A stretch of DNA of 42,659 nt, from sequence record PZ386954.1; one strand, written 5' to 3'. A program made the translations under genes and the position numbers. The stretch's first letter is position 1, and the number at the start of each line of letters is the position of its first letter. A model generated the notes under the pieces. The model ran no database searches and was not told where the DNA came from. It saw only the letters and a program-made list of their open reading frames with translations. Origin of the DNA: a phage. Below, piece by piece: positions 3,999 through 33,391 of the stretch.

Positions 3999-4194
3999 GG
4001 GTATCCGAAAGCTGAGGCAATGAACAGGCCGTGGGTGCAATACCCCGGCTTGAAAATTGACTATTTGTACGTGCCCCTCCCTCGACCCAAATGACCGCGC
4101 GTACCCCCATGACGTGTGCGCGGTTTAGCCTCGCGACGTGCGCGGTATTGTCTCGCGTGCGCTGCGCGGCGCGTCGAAAGGATTGCCTGCGTTC

Positions 4195-4600
4195 GGTATA
4201 GCTCGTGCGTGTCGCGTTTCATCGTCTGCCGTGTGGCGTGCTGTGCGCTGTCCTGCTGGCTGTGCTGTGTGCCTGCTGTGTGGGCTATCGGTGGCGGTGT
4301 GGTGCTGTCCTGTGGGGACGCTCTGCGCTGGCTGTGCGGTGCTGTGCGCTGCGCGTGGTCGGGCGGGTATCTGTCTCTTTTCGTGGCGCGGCGTGGTGCT
4401 GTGTGGTGGCGGTGGTGGCGGTGGTGCTGTCCTGTCTGCTGGTCTACTGTCTGCGCCTCCAGCTCTGCGCGTCATGCTCTGCTCCTGTCTGTCACCTGTC
4501 CTACTGCCTTCACGTTCTGCCGTCTGTCAGTCCTACGGCCTGCCATCCGTCATCCGTTCGGCGCTCGCTTGTTTCGGCTGCGCCGCGCTCGCTCTGCGTA
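4195..4600 (+). repeat. non-coding, extremely A-depleted (G/T/C-only) tract with short degenerate repeats (GCTGTGCG, GGTGGCGGTGGTG, CTGTC); probable genome-terminus or terminal-repeat region
   Basis: by direct count only 4 A residues in 4201-4440; overlapping ORFs in all frames here are low-complexity composition artefacts. Confidence 0.7.
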
Positions 4601-4605
4601 TCTAG

Positions 4606-4634
4606 CGATACTATATCACTATAGACACTTTCAT
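4606..4634 (+). promoter_or_regulatory. conserved element CGATACTATATCACTATAGACACTTTCAT; contains TCACTATAG identical to T7 promoter -8..+1; inverted near-identical copy at 25549-25580
   Basis: TCACTATAG at 4616-4624; about 130 bp upstream of the first sigma70 promoter, a T7 phiOL-like position. Confidence 0.45.
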
Positions 4635-4760
4635 TTACTTATTGATTTATAAGGATTTATTTACTGTATTCAATCGGTATTCTATCCAGTGTTAGGATTA
4701 TCTAATCAAACTTTAATCCTAATGATTACAGTAACTTATCACTTTTCTTGAAAATAATAC

Positions 4761-4789
4761 TTGCAAAGGTATTCGGTATTTGCTGTAAT
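4761..4789 (+). promoter_or_regulatory. sigma70-type early promoter P1 (TTGCAA-N17-TGcTGTAAT)
   Basis: -35 TTGCAA 4761-4766, 17-bp spacer, extended -10 TGc + TGTAAT 4784-4789, AT-rich upstream (AAAATAATAC). Confidence 0.7.
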
Positions 4790-4866
4790 TCATCTCGCCG
4801 GACAACACAGCGTCAACGTGTTGGACGGTGTAGGACGGTAACACTGCTCTTTAACAATCTGGTGTG

Positions 4867-4895
4867 TTGACAAGGCAAGCTCACTATGCTGTAAT
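4867..4895 (+). promoter_or_regulatory. sigma70-type early promoter P2 (TTGACA-N17-TGcTGTAAT)
   Basis: -35 TTGACA 4867-4872, 17-bp spacer, TGcTGTAAT ending 4895. Confidence 0.75.
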
Positions 4896-5004
4896 GCTTC
4901 CACGTCAGCCAGACAAGCCAAATAGTGATGGATAAACACGTTAACACCCACGCAGGCTAACTGGTACGGTTTAATTAACTCTGAACGGGCGCTGATTAAA
5001 TCGG

Positions 5005-25838: not shown

Positions 25839-26258
25839 ATGAAAGTGTCTACTATGGGAAATACATCACACACGACAATGCCACTCGACATTCGCCGTGC
25901 TGTGGCCGAGGGCATTCAAGCCGAGCGGCCATGGTCTGACTTATCTCCCGATGTGATTGTTGACAGCATGTACGAGGCCACCGCCTCCGGTTGTGTTGAC
26001 GTTTACATCACTGATGATGACAACAGCCTTATGGCCGTTGCGCACATCGGCAGGTTATTCGATATTCATGTGGGCGAGATGGTGGTCGTTATGGCCTCAT
26101 ACGTCTGGCCCCCGTACAGAAACCGTGGAGTGATGCGTGCCATCCTCCGTGTACTCAAAGACGTGGCCCGTTCAGAGGGTGTGCGTTGGTGCGGTTACTC
26201 CCATATGGTGCGGCCTTACGTTCAGGAGTACCGCTTCATTGATTTGGAGAAACCGTAA
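25839..26258 (+). CDS. hypothetical protein (139 aa), possible minimal GNAT-like acetyltransferase fold
   Basis: YVWPPYRNRGVMRAILRVLKDVARSEGV resembles the GNAT acetyl-CoA-binding R-x-x-G-x-(G/A) region; weak call. Confidence 0.4.
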   Translation: MKVSTMGNTSHTTMPLDIRRAVAEGIQAERPWSDLSPDVIVDSMYEATASGCVDVYITDDDNSLMAVAHIGRLFDIHVGEMVVVMASYVWPPYRNRGVMRAILRVLKDVARSEGVRWCGYSHMVRPYVQEYRFIDLEKP

Positions 26259-26518
26259 TGGGTAGCGTAGGCAAAGTATTCAAGGGCATTGGCTCGGTCT
26301 TCGGGCTGGGTAGCCAAAAGCCTCAGTACACTATCAAGACTGACCCGGCGCAGGTGAAGGCAGAAACGATGCAGGCTAACCTTGCAGCCGACCTCGCTGG
26401 TGAGAACACCCCAACCATTCAGGCAGGTGGCCAAGTAAGCTCGGCCTCTGATACGCTGGGTGGTCGCCGCCGTCGCACCGGAACTGGTGTGGCAAGTAAC
26501 CTCGGCATTGGGAGCTAA
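26258..26518 (+). CDS. small Gly-rich basic protein (86 aa), probable virion protein
   Basis: ATG overlapping upstream stop; position just before the portal gene. Confidence 0.55.
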   Translation: MGSVGKVFKGIGSVFGLGSQKPQYTIKTDPAQVKAETMQANLAADLAGENTPTIQAGGQVSSASDTLGGRRRRTGTGVASNLGIGS

Positions 26519-26520
26519 GC

Positions 26521-28086
26521 ATGACTCAAGACGCGCAGAACGTCAGCTATGAGTCTCTGTGGCAGAAGTACCGGGATAGCAACGTTGTCACCAAAGCGCG
26601 GGAATACAGCCGCTATACACTGGCCAAGCTGGTGAGCGAGTATGACCGCAGTGACGTGGACGACATGAACCGCCAGCAGATTACTCGTGATTACCAGTCT
26701 GTCGGCGCTCTGCTCGTCAACAACCTAGTTGCCAAACTGGGTGAGTTCCTGTTCCCGGCTTCCGCTCGATTCGTGAAGCTGAAATTAAACAAGGTGTCTG
26801 ACCAACAGCGGCAGTCTATGTCGCAAGTTAATCAGGCGCTTATCACTATTGAAAAGGCCATCGTAGACAAAGCCAAAGAGAATGGCGGCTACGCTGACCT
26901 GCTCCAAGCAATTGCCCAACAAGCTGTGACCGGAAACGCCGCGCTGTACCGCGATATGGAAACTGGTTCGTACCGAGTGTACGGATTGGAATCCTTCGTG
27001 GTGCAGCGCGACGGTCGTGGCGTTGTGGTGGATGCTATCGTGAAGGAGCGCATCCAGTGGGATTCTCTGCCCAAGGACTTTCAGAATGAACTGAACTCCA
27101 AAGGCTTCCGCTGCGGTGGGAACAAACGCGTATGGCTGTACACTCGTGTGCTCCGCGTCCAGAAGGACAGTGGCACGTACGGCTATGAAATCACGCAGCA
27201 GATTGGTAACTACCAAGGTTGCGTCTATACCCCCGGTAAGGATTACTACCCTGAAAAAGTCTGCCCATGGTTATTCCCAGTGTGGTCTTTGAAGTCTGGC
27301 GAGCATTACGGTCGCGGGATTGTCGAAGACCACGCTGGGGATTTCGCACGTCTGTCCATGCTGTCTGAGCACTCAGCTCTGTACATGCAGGAAGCGCTGC
27401 GCGTGCTGTGGATGCTCACTGGTTCTGGCGGCAACGTCGATGACATTGAGAGCGCAGAGACTGGTCAGGTCATTCCACTCCAGAACGGCACATCGCTGTC
27501 CGGCTTGGAGGTCGGGGATTACCAGAAAGTTCAACAGGCCCGTGACGAAATCAACCAGATTGTGCAGCGACTGGCGCAAGCCTTCATGTACACTGGCGAG
27601 TTCCGTGACTCCGAACGTACCACCGCCACCGAAGTGCAGCAGGTAGCAACCAGCGCCGAACGTGGGCTGGGTGGCCCGTACTCAATGCAGGCTAAGACCC
27701 TCCAGATTCCTCTGGCGTACGTCCTGCTCGCGGAGATTGACGAGTCCACCGTACCTGACATCGTAGGCAATATCCTGTCGCTTCAAGTTGAAGCTGGTCT
27801 GGATGCCCTCGGTCGCAGCATTGAAGCAGAGACGCTGATTCGTGCGCTCTCTGACTCGCAGGCAGCAATGGTTGCTGTCCAAAATATTAATGGCGTTGCT
27901 AACACCATCGACCCACAGAAAGTCCTTGAGGTTATCTTCGCATCCAACGGTGTTGCGCTTGACGACTATCGTAAGTCGGCACAAGACTTGGCCCAAGAAG
28001 GGCAGGCCATCGACAATGCAGCGCAGGCTGCCGCAGGCGTTCAGCCGGGCGCGGTCGATGTAGCGCCTAACATCGCACAGATTTAA
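26521..28086 (+). CDS. portal (head-tail connector) protein
   Basis: 521 aa; position and size match T7 gp8-class portals; precedes scaffold and capsid. Confidence 0.85.
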   Translation: MTQDAQNVSYESLWQKYRDSNVVTKAREYSRYTLAKLVSEYDRSDVDDMNRQQITRDYQSVGALLVNNLVAKLGEFLFPASARFVKLKLNKVSDQQRQSMSQVNQALITIEKAIVDKAKENGGYADLLQAIAQQAVTGNAALYRDMETGSYRVYGLESFVVQRDGRGVVVDAIVKERIQWDSLPKDFQNELNSKGFRCGGNKRVWLYTRVLRVQKDSGTYGYEITQQIGNYQGCVYTPGKDYYPEKVCPWLFPVWSLKSGEHYGRGIVEDHAGDFARLSMLSEHSALYMQEALRVLWMLTGSGGNVDDIESAETGQVIPLQNGTSLSGLEVGDYQKVQQARDEINQIVQRLAQAFMYTGEFRDSERTTATEVQQVATSAERGLGGPYSMQAKTLQIPLAYVLLAEIDESTVPDIVGNILSLQVEAGLDALGRSIEAETLIRALSDSQAAMVAVQNINGVANTIDPQKVLEVIFASNGVALDDYRKSAQDLAQEGQAIDNAAQAAAGVQPGAVDVAPNIAQI

Positions 28087-28096
28087 TGGAGAATAC

Positions 28097-29329
28097 ATGT
28101 TTGGTGAATCCCAACCTACTGCCGCACCCGCTCCCCAAAACGTACCCGCTGGCCCGACCTATGCTCCCTCTGGTCACAGCGGTAATGATTATGGTGGAAG
28201 CCCACAGGTGGTACAGAACCCAGCGTTAGGCCGTCTCGGTACGCCAATCGAGTTACCTCGTGGTGGTGCTACCCCGCAGCCTGCGCAGCCGTTCGGACAG
28301 CAGCCGGGCCTGATTCCTTATCAGGAGCAGAATCCGTATGCACAGCCCCAACAGGGAAACCCAAGTCCTTACGCACCCGTACCTCAGCAGAACCCGTATG
28401 GTGCTCCGCAGCAGACCTCTCCGTTTGCGGCACCACCAATTCCGGTTAATGGGTATCAGAATCCGGGCGCAACGCCTCCGGGCCAAGCGGCTCCGGCACA
28501 ACAGTTCCAACAGCCAGTAGCTCCGCAGCCATATGCTTTCGACCCGTATGGTCGTCAGCCGGGCGCACAGCCGCAGGCACAGCAGCCTCAACAGCAGCAG
28601 CCGCAGCCATTCCAACAGTTGCAGCAGCAGCCGGGCCAGCCTCCACAGCAGTTCCAGAATCCCAACCTCACGGCTGAGAAACTGGCTACTCAGGAAGGTG
28701 GCTTGACCTCCGAGCAGGTTGCTCAGATTTTCCCGGACGATACCAGTCGCGCCGTATTCCAAGGCATGGACACCATTGCCCGTGGCCAGAACATCGACCT
28801 GCTTGCAGCGTTCGGTTCGGCTTACGAGCGTCGTGACCCGTCTCTGGTGAACGACCGCTATCTGGCTCAGTTCGACCCACAGACTGTATCAATCCTCAAA
28901 GGTCAATTCGGCGCACTGGTTGCGGCTGGTCAGCAGCGTGACGCTGCAATCGAGCAGCAGGTTTATCAGATGGCTGGTGGCGAGGAGCGATGGGGTCTGG
29001 CTGTACAGGCATTCAACACCGCCGCCGACAAAGGCACGGTCGATGCCGTTGTAGCGGCTGTGAACTCCGGCGACCCTAATCAGGTGCGTCTGGCAGTGAA
29101 CACCATTCTCCAGTTCGCTGGTTCCGCAGGGAATATGATTCAGCGTTCTGGTCAAACTTTGACGCCTAATGGTGGCGGTCAAGCACCTCGTGAGGTTATG
29201 ACCAACGAGGCATTCCGTCAGCATCTTGGCTGGCTTGAGCAGGCGCATCCTGTTGGTTCCCCGGAATACAACAAGCATTACGCCGTACTGGTAGAGCAGC
29301 GCCGTCAGGCTAAAGCTCAAGGTTACTAA
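28097..29329 (+). CDS. scaffolding protein with an unusually long Pro/Gln-rich low-complexity N-terminal half
   Basis: 410 aa between portal and major capsid genes; N-terminal ~200 aa dominated by P, Q, G, A, Y. Confidence 0.7.
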   Translation: MFGESQPTAAPAPQNVPAGPTYAPSGHSGNDYGGSPQVVQNPALGRLGTPIELPRGGATPQPAQPFGQQPGLIPYQEQNPYAQPQQGNPSPYAPVPQQNPYGAPQQTSPFAAPPIPVNGYQNPGATPPGQAAPAQQFQQPVAPQPYAFDPYGRQPGAQPQAQQPQQQQPQPFQQLQQQPGQPPQQFQNPNLTAEKLATQEGGLTSEQVAQIFPDDTSRAVFQGMDTIARGQNIDLLAAFGSAYERRDPSLVNDRYLAQFDPQTVSILKGQFGALVAAGQQRDAAIEQQVYQMAGGEERWGLAVQAFNTAADKGTVDAVVAAVNSGDPNQVRLAVNTILQFAGSAGNMIQRSGQTLTPNGGGQAPREVMTNEAFRQHLGWLEQAHPVGSPEYNKHYAVLVEQRRQAKAQGY

Positions 29330-29349
29330 TTTCTTCGTAAGGATTTTCC

Positions 29350-30342
29350 ATGGCTGATAACACCTATACCCCAAATCAGTTCCGTCCACACTGGGGTGGC
29401 GCGAACTCTGATAACGACATCCACCTTGAGGTGTATGACCGTGATGTTCAAACCCAGTTCATCTACAACTCCATCTTCCGTTCCGGTCTGACCAACTTCA
29501 AGTCTGTGGCTAACCAGTCCAACACTTGGCGTGGCGACCGTCTCGGCTCTGTGACTGTTAAGGGTCGTCGCTCTGGCGAGGCGCTGGACAACCAGCCAGT
29601 TCGCTCTGAGAAACTGATTGTCACTGTGGATACCGTGTCTTACATCCGTATCCCGATTGACTATCAGGACGACTGGACTGCGCCGGACTTCCGCGCTGAG
29701 CTGACCCGTAACATGGGTACTGCACAGGCGAAGGCGTTCGACCAAGCGCACGTCATCCAGCTCCAGAAGTCTGCTGACTTCGTGCCTCCGGCTTCTCTGG
29801 CTGGTGCGTTCAACGCAGGTATCAAGGAGCAGGTCACTCTGACTGGCACCGTGGCATCTGAGGAAGATGATGCGTCTGCGCTGGTACACGGCCACAAGAA
29901 AGCTATCGAGGCGTTCATTCGCCGCGATGCTGACCTTGGCCGACTGGTTACGCTGATTGACCCGGCGTGGTTCAGCATTCTGCTGGAGCACAAGAAACTG
30001 ATGAACGTTGAGTTCACTGGTGGTCGTGGTGTCAACGACTTCGCAATGCGTCGTGTTGCGTATGTCAACGGTATCCGTATCATCGAGAGCAACGCGTTCC
30101 CGCAGGCGGCAATCACCGACCACATCCTCGGCCCTGACTTCAACGTCACCGCCGACGAGATTCAGCGCAAGATGATTATCTTCGACCCGTCTCTGGCTCT
30201 GGTCACTGTCGAAGCCCAGCCGCTGTTCAACCGCGTATGGGATGACGAACGTGAACTGACCAACGTTCTGGATAGCTTCCACATGTACACCGTGGGTCAG
30301 CGTCGTCCAGACGTGGTTGCTGTAGTTACCACTGAGTCCTAA
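29350..30342 (+). CDS. major capsid protein
   Basis: 330 aa; T7/phiKMV-like capsid size and position; followed by terminator-like hairpin. Confidence 0.85.
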   Translation: MADNTYTPNQFRPHWGGANSDNDIHLEVYDRDVQTQFIYNSIFRSGLTNFKSVANQSNTWRGDRLGSVTVKGRRSGEALDNQPVRSEKLIVTVDTVSYIRIPIDYQDDWTAPDFRAELTRNMGTAQAKAFDQAHVIQLQKSADFVPPASLAGAFNAGIKEQVTLTGTVASEEDDASALVHGHKKAIEAFIRRDADLGRLVTLIDPAWFSILLEHKKLMNVEFTGGRGVNDFAMRRVAYVNGIRIIESNAFPQAAITDHILGPDFNVTADEIQRKMIIFDPSLALVTVEAQPLFNRVWDDERELTNVLDSFHMYTVGQRRPDVVAVVTTES

Positions 30343-30352
30343 TGGTAAACTC

Positions 30353-30375
30353 GAAGCCCTTCTCTGAGGGGCTTC
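30353..30375 (+). terminator. hairpin downstream of the major capsid gene (T7 Tphi-like position)
   Basis: GAAGCCC(TT) / CTCTG / (A)GGGGCTTC stem-loop followed by U-rich TATGATTAT. Confidence 0.45.
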
Positions 30376-30398
30376 TATGATTATCACTGGGAGGTTTT

Positions 30399-30947
30399 AT
30401 GACTCTACTCGAAGCAGTCAACATTGTTCTTCGAGCATTGTCTGAACACACTGTATCATCCACCGAGATTCGAAACCCGTCCGTTACCCTTGCACTTGAC
30501 AAGATTGGTATCGCACAGGAAGAAGTTCTCACTGATGGTTGGTGGTTCAACAATATTCGAATCACCATCCCCCGCGAAACGGATGGTCGTGTCAAATACC
30601 CCGCCGACGCATTGAGCTTCATCCCTGATGGGTTTGAGTGTATCGTGCGTGGCGGGTATCTTTACAACGCTAATTCCCAAACCTTTGTTTTTACAGAAGA
30701 TGTTCCGGGATTGGTGACTTACGATTTAGGCTGGGATGACCTACCCAGTCCGGTACAACGACTCGTTGCATATCAAGCAGCTATCTCCGCGTACTCGGAT
30801 GACATGGGTGACAATCCCCCGGCCAGTGTTACTGGTGGTTATGCCATGGCCCTGCAACAGTGCCAGTCTATCCATACCCGCCAGCGTCGATTCAATGCTC
30901 GCCAGCGCAAGAGCTGGTGGCGCTATGAGAGTGCTCGGAGAGGATAA
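30399..30947 (+). CDS. tail tubular protein A (T7 gp11-like)
   Basis: 182 aa; conserved position after capsid; GGAGG SD. Confidence 0.8.
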   Translation: MTLLEAVNIVLRALSEHTVSSTEIRNPSVTLALDKIGIAQEEVLTDGWWFNNIRITIPRETDGRVKYPADALSFIPDGFECIVRGGYLYNANSQTFVFTEDVPGLVTYDLGWDDLPSPVQRLVAYQAAISAYSDDMGDNPPASVTGGYAMALQQCQSIHTRQRRFNARQRKSWWRYESARRG

Positions 30948-33391
30948 TGCCAGTATACCAAGGCGCTTATAAATCCATCCTCGGCGGCGTGAGCCAGCAG
31001 GTCTATACTGACCGCCAGCTATCGCAGGTTGAGGAACAGGTCAACATGACCTCTGACACCGTGCGTGGCCTGCGTAAACGCCCCGGCACCCGACTACACC
31101 GTACTGTGGATTCCACTAACGCGAACGTCTGGAGCCTTGGTAACTTCGGCCACCTGCGATTCACTACCACAAACTTAGGTTGGGGCATCACCACGTTCAT
31201 CGTGAATACGAAGACCGGGTATGTCACCGCCATTGTCGAGACGGAGACTGTCCAGTTCATGGGCCAGTCCTCGTACCTCGTCACGAACAACCCCGACGAC
31301 ATCGTGTTCGCTACCGTAGGCAACACCATGTACGTTGCCAACTGCTCCAAGCTACCAGTGCTTCTGGAGAACGAGACGCGTATGAATCCGGGTCGCCGGG
31401 GTTACTTCTTCGTGCTGGCTGGCGGCTACGGCAAGCAGTACACCGTTCGCGTTGAGACGAGCGGGGGCGCTGTGTCAGCCTCTTACACTACGCCTAACTC
31501 TGGCGATACGGGCGCTTCGGATAAGGCCACACCAGAGTACATCATTGGTCAGTTGAAGACTCAGCTCGACGCTGCCGTTGGCGGCGCTACCGGGCTGGAG
31601 GTTGTGCAGGTGGATGGTGCGTACATGTACCTCCAGACCACTGCCGCATACACTGACCTGAACGTCTCCACCAACACTGGCTCCAGCTACGCGATTGCCT
31701 CGAACACCCACCGTGTTGACCTGACCACCAAGCTCCCGGCACGTCTGCCGACTCAGGCTGGTGGCTTCATCATGACCGTAGGTGATGACAGCTTCGCACA
31801 GTATTTCCAGTGGGATTATGCCAACTCGCGCTGGGTGGAGAAAGGTGCTTGGGGTTCCCCGACCGGGATTAACCCAAGCACAATGCCGCTGGTGTTCAGC
31901 ACGACTTCGACCACCAACCAGCACACGTTCGCCCAAGGCTCATGGCCGGGCCGACTGGCTGGCGACGACAAGACCAACTCAATCCCAGCATTCACTGATG
32001 CTGATGGTGTGGGTATCACTGGTCTGGCTTCGTTCCAAGGTCGCCTGATTGTGTTCTCCGGCCCGTACATTACCATGGGTTCCAGCAACAAGGAAGACAG
32101 AACCAACTTCTTCCGTACGACTGTGACGCAGGTACTGGACGACGACCGCATTGAGTTCACCGCAACCAGCTTCGCCGGGGCATCGTTCCGGTACGGCATC
32201 CCGTTCAACTCTGACCTGATTCTGGCCAGCGAGGAACACCAAGCCGTTATCCCCGGACGTAACCAAATCCTTACGCCGAACAACGCCACTGCTGTGTTGA
32301 CCTCGACGTACCAGATGGACACTGGCGTAGCGCCGACCACTTCTGGCCGCAGCCTGTATTACGCGTACCCGCGCTCGAACAGCTCATTCTCCATCAAGGA
32401 GATGCTGCCGTCCGGCTACACGGATTTGCAGTACGTGAGTCAGGACGTGACCGACCACCTGCCGACCTATCTGGAAGGGGCCAACTCGTACATCTCTGCC
32501 AGCACCACGAACAACATCGTTGTGTTTGGCTCAACCACTGAGAAGTCCACGCTCTACGTGAACGAGTACCTGTGGTCAGGTGACGAGAAGGTGCTGTCCT
32601 CTTGGCATCGCTGGGAGGTGTACGGCACTGTGCAGGCTGCGTGGTTCGTTCGTGAGGTGCTGGTGCTCTTGGTTGAGCAGCAGGGCCACATGAACCTGCT
32701 CACGCTGTCCATGCGAGATTCCCCTGACCCGACTGACCCGGCGCGATTCCTCCCGGCCATTGACTACGCCCAGTTGATGACTGTGACGAACCCGGCCACG
32801 GACAGCTCGTACATTCAGTTTGCTGCCACTGGCGAGCAGAAGGCGCTGTGGGACATTATCCAGTACCGCTACCAGACTGAGGGCAACTGGGACTTCATGA
32901 CGAACGTAGTGCCGTCTGGCAACTACATCGGGGCTGAGGTCGGGGTTAAGTCCATCGACACCACGAACCGACGCGTGTACCTCCAGCCTTCGTACGGCAG
33001 CAGCTCACTGTATGTGGGCCTGCGATTCACTGCCCTGTTCAGCCCTACGCCTCCGCGTGTGTTCAATCAGGACGGCTCGTACATGGACGTGAACAAGATG
33101 ATCATCATGCACTACAACTTCACGTTGCGGTACACGAGCCTGTTCAACATCACGGCCAGCGACCGGGGCGCGTACTCGGCACTGAACATCATCAGCAGCC
33201 CTATCCGGTACACCAGTAAAGAGCTGGGTCTGGAGTCTGCGATGTTGGCCAAGCGTGCGCACTTGAAGGTTCGCATGGGTCTTGAAGTGGAGTCCAGCAG
33301 CATGGTCGTGGATTCGTCTACGGCAGGCGACCTGAACATTCAGGGGCTTGGCTACTACATCAAGTTCTACAACAAAGTTCGGAGAATTTAA
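30947..33391 (+). CDS. tail tubular protein B (T7 gp12-like)
   Basis: 814 aa; ATG overlaps upstream stop; conserved position and size. Confidence 0.8.
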   Translation: MPVYQGAYKSILGGVSQQVYTDRQLSQVEEQVNMTSDTVRGLRKRPGTRLHRTVDSTNANVWSLGNFGHLRFTTTNLGWGITTFIVNTKTGYVTAIVETETVQFMGQSSYLVTNNPDDIVFATVGNTMYVANCSKLPVLLENETRMNPGRRGYFFVLAGGYGKQYTVRVETSGGAVSASYTTPNSGDTGASDKATPEYIIGQLKTQLDAAVGGATGLEVVQVDGAYMYLQTTAAYTDLNVSTNTGSSYAIASNTHRVDLTTKLPARLPTQAGGFIMTVGDDSFAQYFQWDYANSRWVEKGAWGSPTGINPSTMPLVFSTTSTTNQHTFAQGSWPGRLAGDDKTNSIPAFTDADGVGITGLASFQGRLIVFSGPYITMGSSNKEDRTNFFRTTVTQVLDDDRIEFTATSFAGASFRYGIPFNSDLILASEEHQAVIPGRNQILTPNNATAVLTSTYQMDTGVAPTTSGRSLYYAYPRSNSSFSIKEMLPSGYTDLQYVSQDVTDHLPTYLEGANSYISASTTNNIVVFGSTTEKSTLYVNEYLWSGDEKVLSSWHRWEVYGTVQAAWFVREVLVLLVEQQGHMNLLTLSMRDSPDPTDPARFLPAIDYAQLMTVTNPATDSSYIQFAATGEQKALWDIIQYRYQTEGNWDFMTNVVPSGNYIGAEVGVKSIDTTNRRVYLQPSYGSSSLYVGLRFTALFSPTPPRVFNQDGSYMDVNKMIIMHYNFTLRYTSLFNITASDRGAYSALNIISSPIRYTSKELGLESAMLAKRAHLKVRMGLEVESSSMVVDSSTAGDLNIQGLGYYIKFYNKVRRI

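Follow-up and report, generated by a model that had tools for sequence, protein, structure and literature searches.

A two-part head scaffolding protein with an expanded, predicted-disordered Pro/Gln-rich N-terminal tail in a Bonnellvirus

In the phage DNA stretch PZ386954.1 (42,659 nucleotides; hereafter, the window), the slot between the portal and the major capsid protein genes is occupied by a gene for a head scaffolding protein made of two dissimilar parts, namely a Pro- and Gln-rich N-terminal tail of ~200 residues, predicted to be intrinsically disordered, and a C-terminal domain predicted to be all-helical (table 1). The genes follow each other in the order portal, scaffold, major capsid, tail tube A and nozzle (tail tube B). 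The source phage is a Bonnellvirus (Autographiviridae): across 26000-31000 it shares 99.2% identity with Escherichia phage aldrigsur, in which an RNA polymerase gene lies upstream, and 83-95% with the other ‘sur’ phages, J8-65, Kc261, RZ4 and ROV85. The scaffold gene is 99% identical to aldrigsur_6, which is annotated, as in other close relatives, as ‘scaffolding protein’; the gene itself is already in public records.

Table 1. Features of the scaffold locus (positions in the window; residues are those of the scaffolding protein).
Feature	Position	Strand	Details
Portal (head-tail connector) gene	26521..28086	+	PF12236, E 4e-49; TAA stop 28084-28086
Shine-Dalgarno (SD) sequence GGAG	28088..28091	+	ATG 5 nt downstream; portal stop codon 1 nt upstream; context TAATGGAGAATACATG
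Head scaffolding protein gene	28097..29329	+	ATG start; 410 aa, 43.7 kDa, pI 5.1
N-terminal near-uncharged P/Q-rich region, predicted intrinsically disordered	28097..28696	+	Residues 1-200
Motif A, VVQNPALGRLGTPIELP	28208..28258	+	Residues 38-54; clade consensus VVQNPALGxLGTPIELP
Pro-aromatic motif cluster	28286..28549	+	Residues 64-151; degenerate ~10-aa units: NPY, SPY, NPYG, SPFAAPP, PPGQAAP, F[DN]PYG
Gln/Pro tract	28550..28666	+	Residues 152-190; lowest complexity, most indel-prone
C-terminal scaffold domain, predicted all-helical	28700..29326	+	Residues 202-410; AlphaFold2 pLDDT 78-92; helices 205-348 and 370-407
Conserved C-domain loop, GNMIQRSGQTLTPNGGGQAPR	29129..29191	+	Residues 345-365; pLDDT <50; nearly invariant in clade
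Major capsid protein gene	29350..30342	+	phrog_267 ‘major head protein’, E 6e-80; starts 20 nt after the scaffold gene end

That the gene product is a head scaffolding protein, as proposed in the first-pass annotation of the window (made from the letters alone), is very likely, because four lines of evidence agree: (i) the synteny just described; (ii) the profile matches to the PHROG families phrog_36307 (‘head scaffolding protein’; residues 1-410, E 2e-214) and phrog_1018 (280 positions; residues 148-410, E 8e-14); (iii) the annotation of the gene in 99%-identical phages; and (iv) the fold matches of the AlphaFold2 model, computed on a 22-sequence alignment, to the BFVD, where 12 hits are significant (E 8e-27 to 9e-4) and all are named Autographiviridae scaffolding proteins except one, which is unnamed. 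These matched proteins are 237-363 aa long, with the exception of that of LIMEzero at 387 aa.

The protein is, more precisely, a member of the phiKMV-type scaffold family (phrog_1018, phrog_36307), on account of the profile match, the synteny, the helical C-domain and the Pro-rich N-terminus taken together. Indeed, phiKMV gp31 and KpV41 gp38 match both PHROG families, and the scaffolds of this type (phiKMV gp31, KpV41 gp38 and phiAp1 gp39 in phrog_1018) share with the window protein the slot between the portal and major capsid genes. This gene order holds in phiKMV, KpV41, Proteus phage 309 and phiAp1, where no other gene separates the scaffold gene from that of the portal. They also share a homologous helical C-domain and a Pro-rich low-complexity N-region: phiKMV gp31 (322 aa), with ~120 N-terminal residues rich in Pro, Ala and Gln, bears the annotation ‘Pro-and Ala-rich protein’. 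A tblastn search with residues 186-410 retrieves the scaffold genes of 401 phage records, and identity to those of phiKMV-like, KP34-like and other groups is 22-30%. The C-domain carries the family positions AGG...W and a C-terminal R...K..G; in 36 family sequences G294 and R402 never vary, and conservation reaches at least 90% at G295, W299 and G409, while K406 is without variation only in the alignment of 22 sequences, most of them from the clade. Between the predicted helices, the loop at residues 345-365 is a candidate interaction loop of this domain. Searches of the PDB by sequence, by the 36-sequence profile and by Foldseek returned nothing significant, and the family has, hence, no structural template; no Pfam or NCBIfam family matched the window scaffold or phiKMV gp31. 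A protein 75% identical to the C-domain is recorded as ‘hypothetical protein ABER06_12385, partial [Cutibacterium acnes]’ (P0005) on a 773-bp contig, which most likely reflects contamination of that bacterial assembly by enterobacterial-phage sequence.

The N-terminal region stands apart from the rest of the protein and of the phage in composition. Residues 1-200 comprise 22% Gln, 22% Pro, 12% Ala and 10% Gly, with only ~5% of Asp, Glu, Lys and Arg together (5 Asp/Glu, or 2.6%, and 3 Lys/Arg within residues 1-190). Pro and Gln add up to 44%, as compared with 9.3% across 45 long + strand open reading frames (ORFs; binomial tail 7e-38), and the highest Pro plus Gln fraction of any 100-aa segment is 0.56 in the scaffold and 0.20 in the next ORF. 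The bias stops at about residue 190-200, as seen both in a scan of entropy and composition and in the AlphaFold2 confidence, which is low (pLDDT 31-46) and accompanied by no secondary structure over residues 1-201. On the Uversky charge-hydropathy plot the region likewise falls on the disordered side. The N-terminal half is, therefore, predicted to be intrinsically disordered, as the first-pass annotation had supposed, and the disorder and low-complexity predictions that it recommended agree over about residues 1-200. Its description of the region as Tyr-rich and prion-like holds in part: the region contains 9 Tyr (4.5%) and 7 Phe, a modest number in itself, although the resulting 8% of aromatics places it at the 99th percentile of family N-regions; and Gln plus Asn amount to ~27%, but the 44 Pro found in 190 residues (22-23%) are evenly interspersed, so that Pro-free runs reach 11 aa at the longest, and no more than 7 aa in the Gln-rich part.

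Within this low-complexity background, short stretches are conserved. In motif A, the residues V39, N41, P42, A43, L44, G45, L47 and P54 are invariant in five clade members that are only 61-66% identical overall; the motif, nearly invariant within the clade, can be recognised in each of the 17 full-length sequences aligned and coincides with a small rise of pLDDT to 46. The Pro-aromatic cluster is enriched in [NS]P[YF], found four times as compared with 0.31 expected (13-fold; a count reached in none of 5000 shuffles), and in P[YF] (nine, with 3.7 expected in shuffles; P=0.005), and the aromatic residues between positions 66 and 120 follow each other at distances of 9, 6, 11, 9, 9 and 10 residues. 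Here a second block (motif block B, residues 91-114, PY...QQNPYG...SP[FY]AA.P) is also invariant among the sequences 61-66% identical overall (~70% in the C-domain); the positions P91, Y92, N99, P100, Y101, G102, S108, P109, A111, A112 and P114 do not vary in the clade. At the DNA level, the cluster contains a weak repeat family, CAGAAYCCG..., with spacings of 60 and 69 nt. The Gln/Pro tract that follows, with a Pro plus Gln fraction of 0.70-0.77 and an entropy down to 2.0-2.2 bits per 30 aa, includes the peptide QPQAQQPQQQQPQPFQQLQQQPGQPPQQFQ (residues 158-187). At 28580-28610 (residues ~162-171) it differs from aldrigsur by a 1-residue indel (QQQQPQPF versus QQQQ-QPF) and from other relatives by larger ones, which suggests that the tract is still undergoing small-scale length change. 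The alignment with the scaffolds of relatives proposed at the outset, thus, shows an N-region that is divergent and indel-rich but not featureless.

Ahead of the first conserved motif lie ~37 residues that are extra with respect to phiKMV-type scaffolds. Near residue 11, a GF..P / PPG[LIM] peptide recurs in 37-49 of 140 phiKMV-type representatives and in 2-8 of them after shuffling, a pattern that was defined post hoc, after inspection of the sequences, and is to be taken as a lead only; it may be a family-wide N-terminal linear motif, and suggests a general plan of N-terminal peptide motif, Pro-rich spacer and helical domain. Example carriers are P0024, P0041 and P0065 (‘VPT.GF.VPP’).

The tail is part of one translated gene. 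In all 17 relatives compared (Bonnellvirus isolates, LIMEzero, which is a Waewaevirus, four uncultured viral contigs and one JGI contig) the gene is a single uninterrupted ORF of 387-411 aa, and the junction formed by the portal stop codon, GGAG or TGGAG, spacer and ATG is kept; the possibility, raised with the initial prediction, that the gene is actually two ORFs can accordingly be set aside. By pairwise Nei-Gojobori comparison, dN/dS is 0.15-0.33 over residues 1-190 and 0.04-0.11 in the C-terminal part; being below 1 in the scaffold frame, it implies that the N-region is translated. The N-region dN is 1.2-4 times that of the C-domain, and almost every indel of the gene falls within the N-part (2-47 gap columns, versus 0-2 in the C-part). 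Its length, in turn, is held at 165-200 aa across the clade despite ~50% sequence divergence. The tail is, thus, shown to be translated, in frame and under purifying selection, though faster-evolving than the C-domain and subject to indels. The Bonnellvirus and Waewaevirus scaffolds of phrog_36307 (such as those of J8-65, Lidtsur and aldrigsur, and ORF39 of LIMEzero) are the same protein, extension included, 60-99% identical to that of the window, from which they differ only by point changes and small indels in the Q/P tracts.

How unusual such a tail is can be judged from a search with the C-domain in a library of 1.8 billion proteins, which gave 170 representatives, onto 146 of which the start of the conserved domain was projected. 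In these 146 phiKMV-type proteins the median N-region is 83 aa long (5th-95th percentile, 40-116), and the medians of its composition are 20% for Pro, 17% for Ala, 9% for Gln and 2% for aromatics. With 200 aa, that of the window scaffold is the longest among the 147 and ranks at the 91st percentile in Gln content and the 99th in aromatic content; next in length come the representatives most closely related to it (196 and 165 aa). Thus, Bonnellvirus, Waewaevirus/LIMEzero and uncultured relatives have the longest N-regions (165-200 aa), which are also unusually rich in Gln and aromatic residues, and the window protein differs from the phiKMV gp31-type scaffolds in that its N-region is 2.4 times the median length (200 versus 83 aa), has more Gln (22% versus 9%) and aromatics (8% versus 2%) and less Ala, and carries conserved motifs specific to the clade. 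The more distant representative P0011 (41% identity in the C-domain) has an N-region of 105 aa of P/Q/aromatic character, and other lineages have expanded independently, with different compositions, among them P0016, in which the N-region reaches 141 aa.

A disordered low-complexity N-terminus is, therefore, the rule in the phiKMV-type family, the lineage-specific part being the ~2.4-fold length and the neutral P/Q/aromatic chemistry, and the tail is best seen as an extreme variant of a family-wide disordered tail. This bears on the claims that the protein carries a ~200-aa extension, that the extension might be lineage-specific and that it is unusual for T7-like scaffolds. The low-complexity region is real, but the net extra length is ~115-130 aa, given the family median and the alignment of phrog_1018 from residue 148; its large size sets the lineage apart, whereas the presence of a low-complexity tail does not. 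The third claim fails, since Pro-rich N-regions are usual among phiKMV-type scaffolds and T7 gp9 itself has a 122-aa N-terminus with 30% Asp/Glu.

As to the origin of the tail, the available comparisons point to an expansion in place, by which an N-region of the customary ~80 aa grew to ~200 aa, because the region has no relatives outside its clade, no gene intervenes between portal and scaffold in other phages, and the P0011 tail has 105 aa. With the N-region as query, a tblastn search of 50,697 phage records detected the scaffold gene alone, in 20 records from 18 phages (17 of them classified in, or assignable by identity to, Bonnellvirus, plus HHU8); blastn of its DNA against 5,426 E. coli genomes gave no match; the PHROG search returned its own family only; and residues 1-190 or 1-200 had no match at E<=1e-3 in a database of 5.8 billion proteins, which is a weak negative as that search missed the clade's own members. 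On these grounds, a host-derived or shuffled module is ruled out. Tandem repetition or slippage of the DNA as the source of the tail is likewise ruled out: the only repeats of the gene are one 15-nt unit present 2.3 times and short degenerate direct repeats, and the Pro codons are mixed, all four being used (CAG accounts for 81% of the Gln codons of the tail and for 79% of those in the remainder of the gene). The P/Q domain of E. coli ZipA, the FtsK linker and the disordered linker of the single-stranded DNA-binding protein (SSB) have a Pro/Gln composition, with or without Gly and aromatics, that is like that of the tail, and presumably behave likewise as unstructured tethers, a resemblance that can serve as a lead only. 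They differ from it in that no homology is found, the tail DNA being without match in the E. coli genomes and the protein search being empty.

With respect to the best-known scaffolds, T7 gp9 (PF05396/phrog_1052) occupies the same genomic slot, presumably in the same role, and is also a two-part protein, in which a low-complexity N-terminus of 122 aa lies outside the Pfam domain and is followed by a conserved C-terminal domain. The two tails differ in chemistry: residues 1-122 of gp9 are acidic (30% Asp/Glu, 3% Pro, 3% Gln), as opposed to 2.6% Asp/Glu in residues 1-190 of the window protein. A weak colinear similarity is found around AGGxxxW/F (phrog_1052, E 4.8e-4, 21 bits; hhalign of the family profile against gp9, E 0.0022, probability 13%, 148 columns), and the BFVD matches include, at E ~6e-3, proteins named ‘capsid assembly protein’. 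Such signals are compatible with remote homology. Membership of the PF05396 family is, however, not demonstrable for the window scaffold, which gave no match to that profile even at E<=10, while T7 gp9 itself scores E 7e-76. P22 gp8, which is helical throughout and has no P/Q-rich tail, is a functional analogue of the window scaffold, with no detectable similarity in sequence or fold. It is a transient internal scaffold in which a coat-binding C-terminal element is combined with a flexible, poorly ordered remainder organised around the portal (PMC12005531).

Taken together, these properties are best explained by a two-part phiKMV-type scaffold whose expanded disordered tail acts as a tether or brush, an overall account that we consider moderately likely. 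Its components differ in strength: that the tail is disordered, functional and expanded in its lineage is probable, while the specific tether or brush mechanism is tentative and somewhat doubtful. By analogy with other scaffolds, the helical C-domain (~210 aa) would be the scaffold proper, which self-associates and binds the coat protein, and the unfolded tail, anchored by a C-domain bound to the shell, would project into the lumen of the procapsid like a flexible tether or a polymer brush. Motif A might be offered to a partner (portal, internal core, coat protein or a further scaffold molecule), and the regularly spaced Pro-Tyr/Phe ‘stickers’ could provide a weak multivalent self-attraction that concentrates scaffold and coat during nucleation. 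Finally, as an unfolded and uncharged chain, the tail could leave intact through the shell as the DNA is packaged; a prohead protease is not known to be used by T7-like phages. A scaling-law estimate gives the tail a radius of gyration of ~46 Å and a contour length of ~72 nm, to be compared with a procapsid inner radius of ~21 nm, and the tails alone would reach ~85-125 g/L in the cavity at an assumed 100-150 copies per procapsid, where both copy number and inner radius are assumptions based on T7.

Several points weigh against this account. Neither the PDB nor the literature open to search returned an experimental or structural record for this protein or for the N-terminal part of any scaffold of the phiKMV type. 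The tail evolves 2-3 times faster than the C-domain and tolerates many indels, so much of it may need bulk properties only, and its composition could stem in part from mutational bias. The sequence link to a proven scaffold, T7 gp9, is weak, as the figures given above indicate. The searchable literature yielded nothing specific on disordered or phase-separating phage scaffolds, on procapsid structures with T7 gp9, or on LIMEzero or Bonnellvirus scaffolds; the expanded tail is not described in the papers searched.

Among the alternatives, the first to be weighed is that the tail is a tolerated, essentially neutral low-complexity runaway, produced by replication slippage and compositional drift, on which the only constraint is to be unfolded and harmless. 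The concentration of the indels in the N-region and its raised dN would fit such a drift, as would the 1-residue indel that separates two 99%-identical phages in the Q tract and the independent expansions of other composition, of which the 141-aa N-region of P0016 is an example. What makes it unlikely is that dN/dS in the tail is far under 1, that the blocks at residues 39-54 and 91-114 are invariant among members otherwise so divergent, and that the length is kept at 165-200 aa in the clade; moreover, the DNA holds no real tandem repeat, the Pro codons are mixed and the Gln codons are used as in the rest of the gene. A passenger of 600 nt would also be costly in a 42-kb genome packed to capacity.

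Also unlikely is that the main function of the tail is not simple tethering but that of a sticker-and-spacer domain, by which scaffold and coat are brought into assembly foci through liquid-like condensation. The composition is suggestive in this respect, with a net charge of about zero, high Gln and 16 aromatics, which in the core are ~9-10 residues apart, and the in-capsid concentration estimated above falls, at the assumed copy number, within the range of dense phases. The tail also resembles prion-like domains of the sticker-spacer type and the linker of E. coli SSB, which is rich in Gly, Gln and Pro. Simulations of capsid assembly cited in a 2026 review, in which condensates speed up the process (PMC13185644), count in favour of this possibility. 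This support is, however, purely compositional as far as the tail is concerned, and a chain with 22% Pro should be expanded and well solvated; in the literature searched, no phage scaffold is reported as phase-separating; and most family members have a tail of ~80 aa, rich in Pro and Ala, with ~2% aromatics. A more elaborate version, in which the tail is a condensate-forming or elastomer-like polymer that nucleates procapsids by phase separation, fills the shell as a dense uncharged liquid and is squeezed out during packaging, is similarly improbable.

That the tail is an artefact of annotation or sequence, the true start being near residue 135-200, or a second, overlapping gene being present, or a module having been fused from elsewhere as a host mimic, is very improbable. 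Two public gene calls do start internally: in Cronobacter phage RZ4 (2101-3336) the coding sequence is given as 277 aa, and in the JGI contig Ga0490018_000022 (P0004; 2725-3918) as 305 aa, so that ~280-400 nt are left as ‘non-coding’. In both genomes, however, the full ORF (411 and 397 aa, respectively) is intact, with the same SD-ATG after the portal stop; these apparent tail-less natural variants are, therefore, gene-call artefacts, and gene finders mishandle the low-complexity N-terminus. No in-frame internal start with a conserved SD exists in the scaffold gene, the sole candidate being a TTG at L203, which has AGGA upstream and corresponds to a residue that is not conserved, and no sigma-70-like internal promoter was found in the gene. 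A 169-aa antisense ORF (28253-28762, minus strand), rich in Leu and Arg, could be taken for the overlapping gene, but it lies in exact codon register with the P/Q-rich region and is open solely for want of TTA, CTA and TCA codons; relatives do not preserve its extent, and it is rejected as an artefact of codon register. The dN/dS below 1 in the scaffold frame, and the lack of homologues of the N-region in other proteins, in other phages and in E. coli, complete the case against an artefact.

A true prion or amyloid-forming domain, for which the Gln plus Asn content, the aromatics, the paucity of charges (~5%) and a Q/N-rich charge-poor stretch of at least 60 aa could be invoked, is extremely improbable, as the region holds no low-Pro segment capable of cross-beta structure, frequent and evenly spread Pro argues against amyloid or prion behaviour, and its value of 2P+G is 0.54, near what is reportedly the elastomer-like rather than the amyloid regime according to Rauscher and co-workers in 2006.

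Scaffolding proteins are the least structurally understood parts of capsid assembly in phages and herpesviruses, and their flexible parts are usually invisible and, as such, ignored. The survey described here shows that every phiKMV-type scaffold bears a disordered N-tail, of ~40 to 200 aa, whose chemistry varies by lineage, and that even the most extreme of these tails retains short conserved motifs and evolves under purifying selection. Since it infects E. coli K-12 and is easy to manipulate, the Bonnellvirus/LIMEzero clade would be convenient for asking what the tail does, be it partner recruitment, self-association, space filling or exit. Should the tail be dispensable, it would be a low-complexity expansion that is simply tolerated, and a warning to gene callers, while its interest would rise if it drove assembly by condensation or by a defined partner interaction. 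In the event that condensation proved true, this would be the first tailed-phage scaffold shown to work through a condensate, and the acidic (T7), Pro/Ala (phiKMV) and P/Q/Tyr (Bonnellvirus clade) tails would form a natural series on how tail chemistry tunes assembly.

Elsewhere in the window, at 4200-4600 (and 4600-4900), a stretch of ~400 bp has hardly any A on its + strand (AT skew -0.85 and -0.72, GC 0.64-0.67) and holds the short tandem repeats GCTGTGCGCT (3.2 copies) and GTGGTGGCG (2.7 copies); after it come an AT-rich segment (29% GC) and a region containing TTGACA. The whole is probably the genome-end or terminal-repeat and early-promoter region, and the ORFs called there, 4116-4652 and 4138-4605, look like artefacts.

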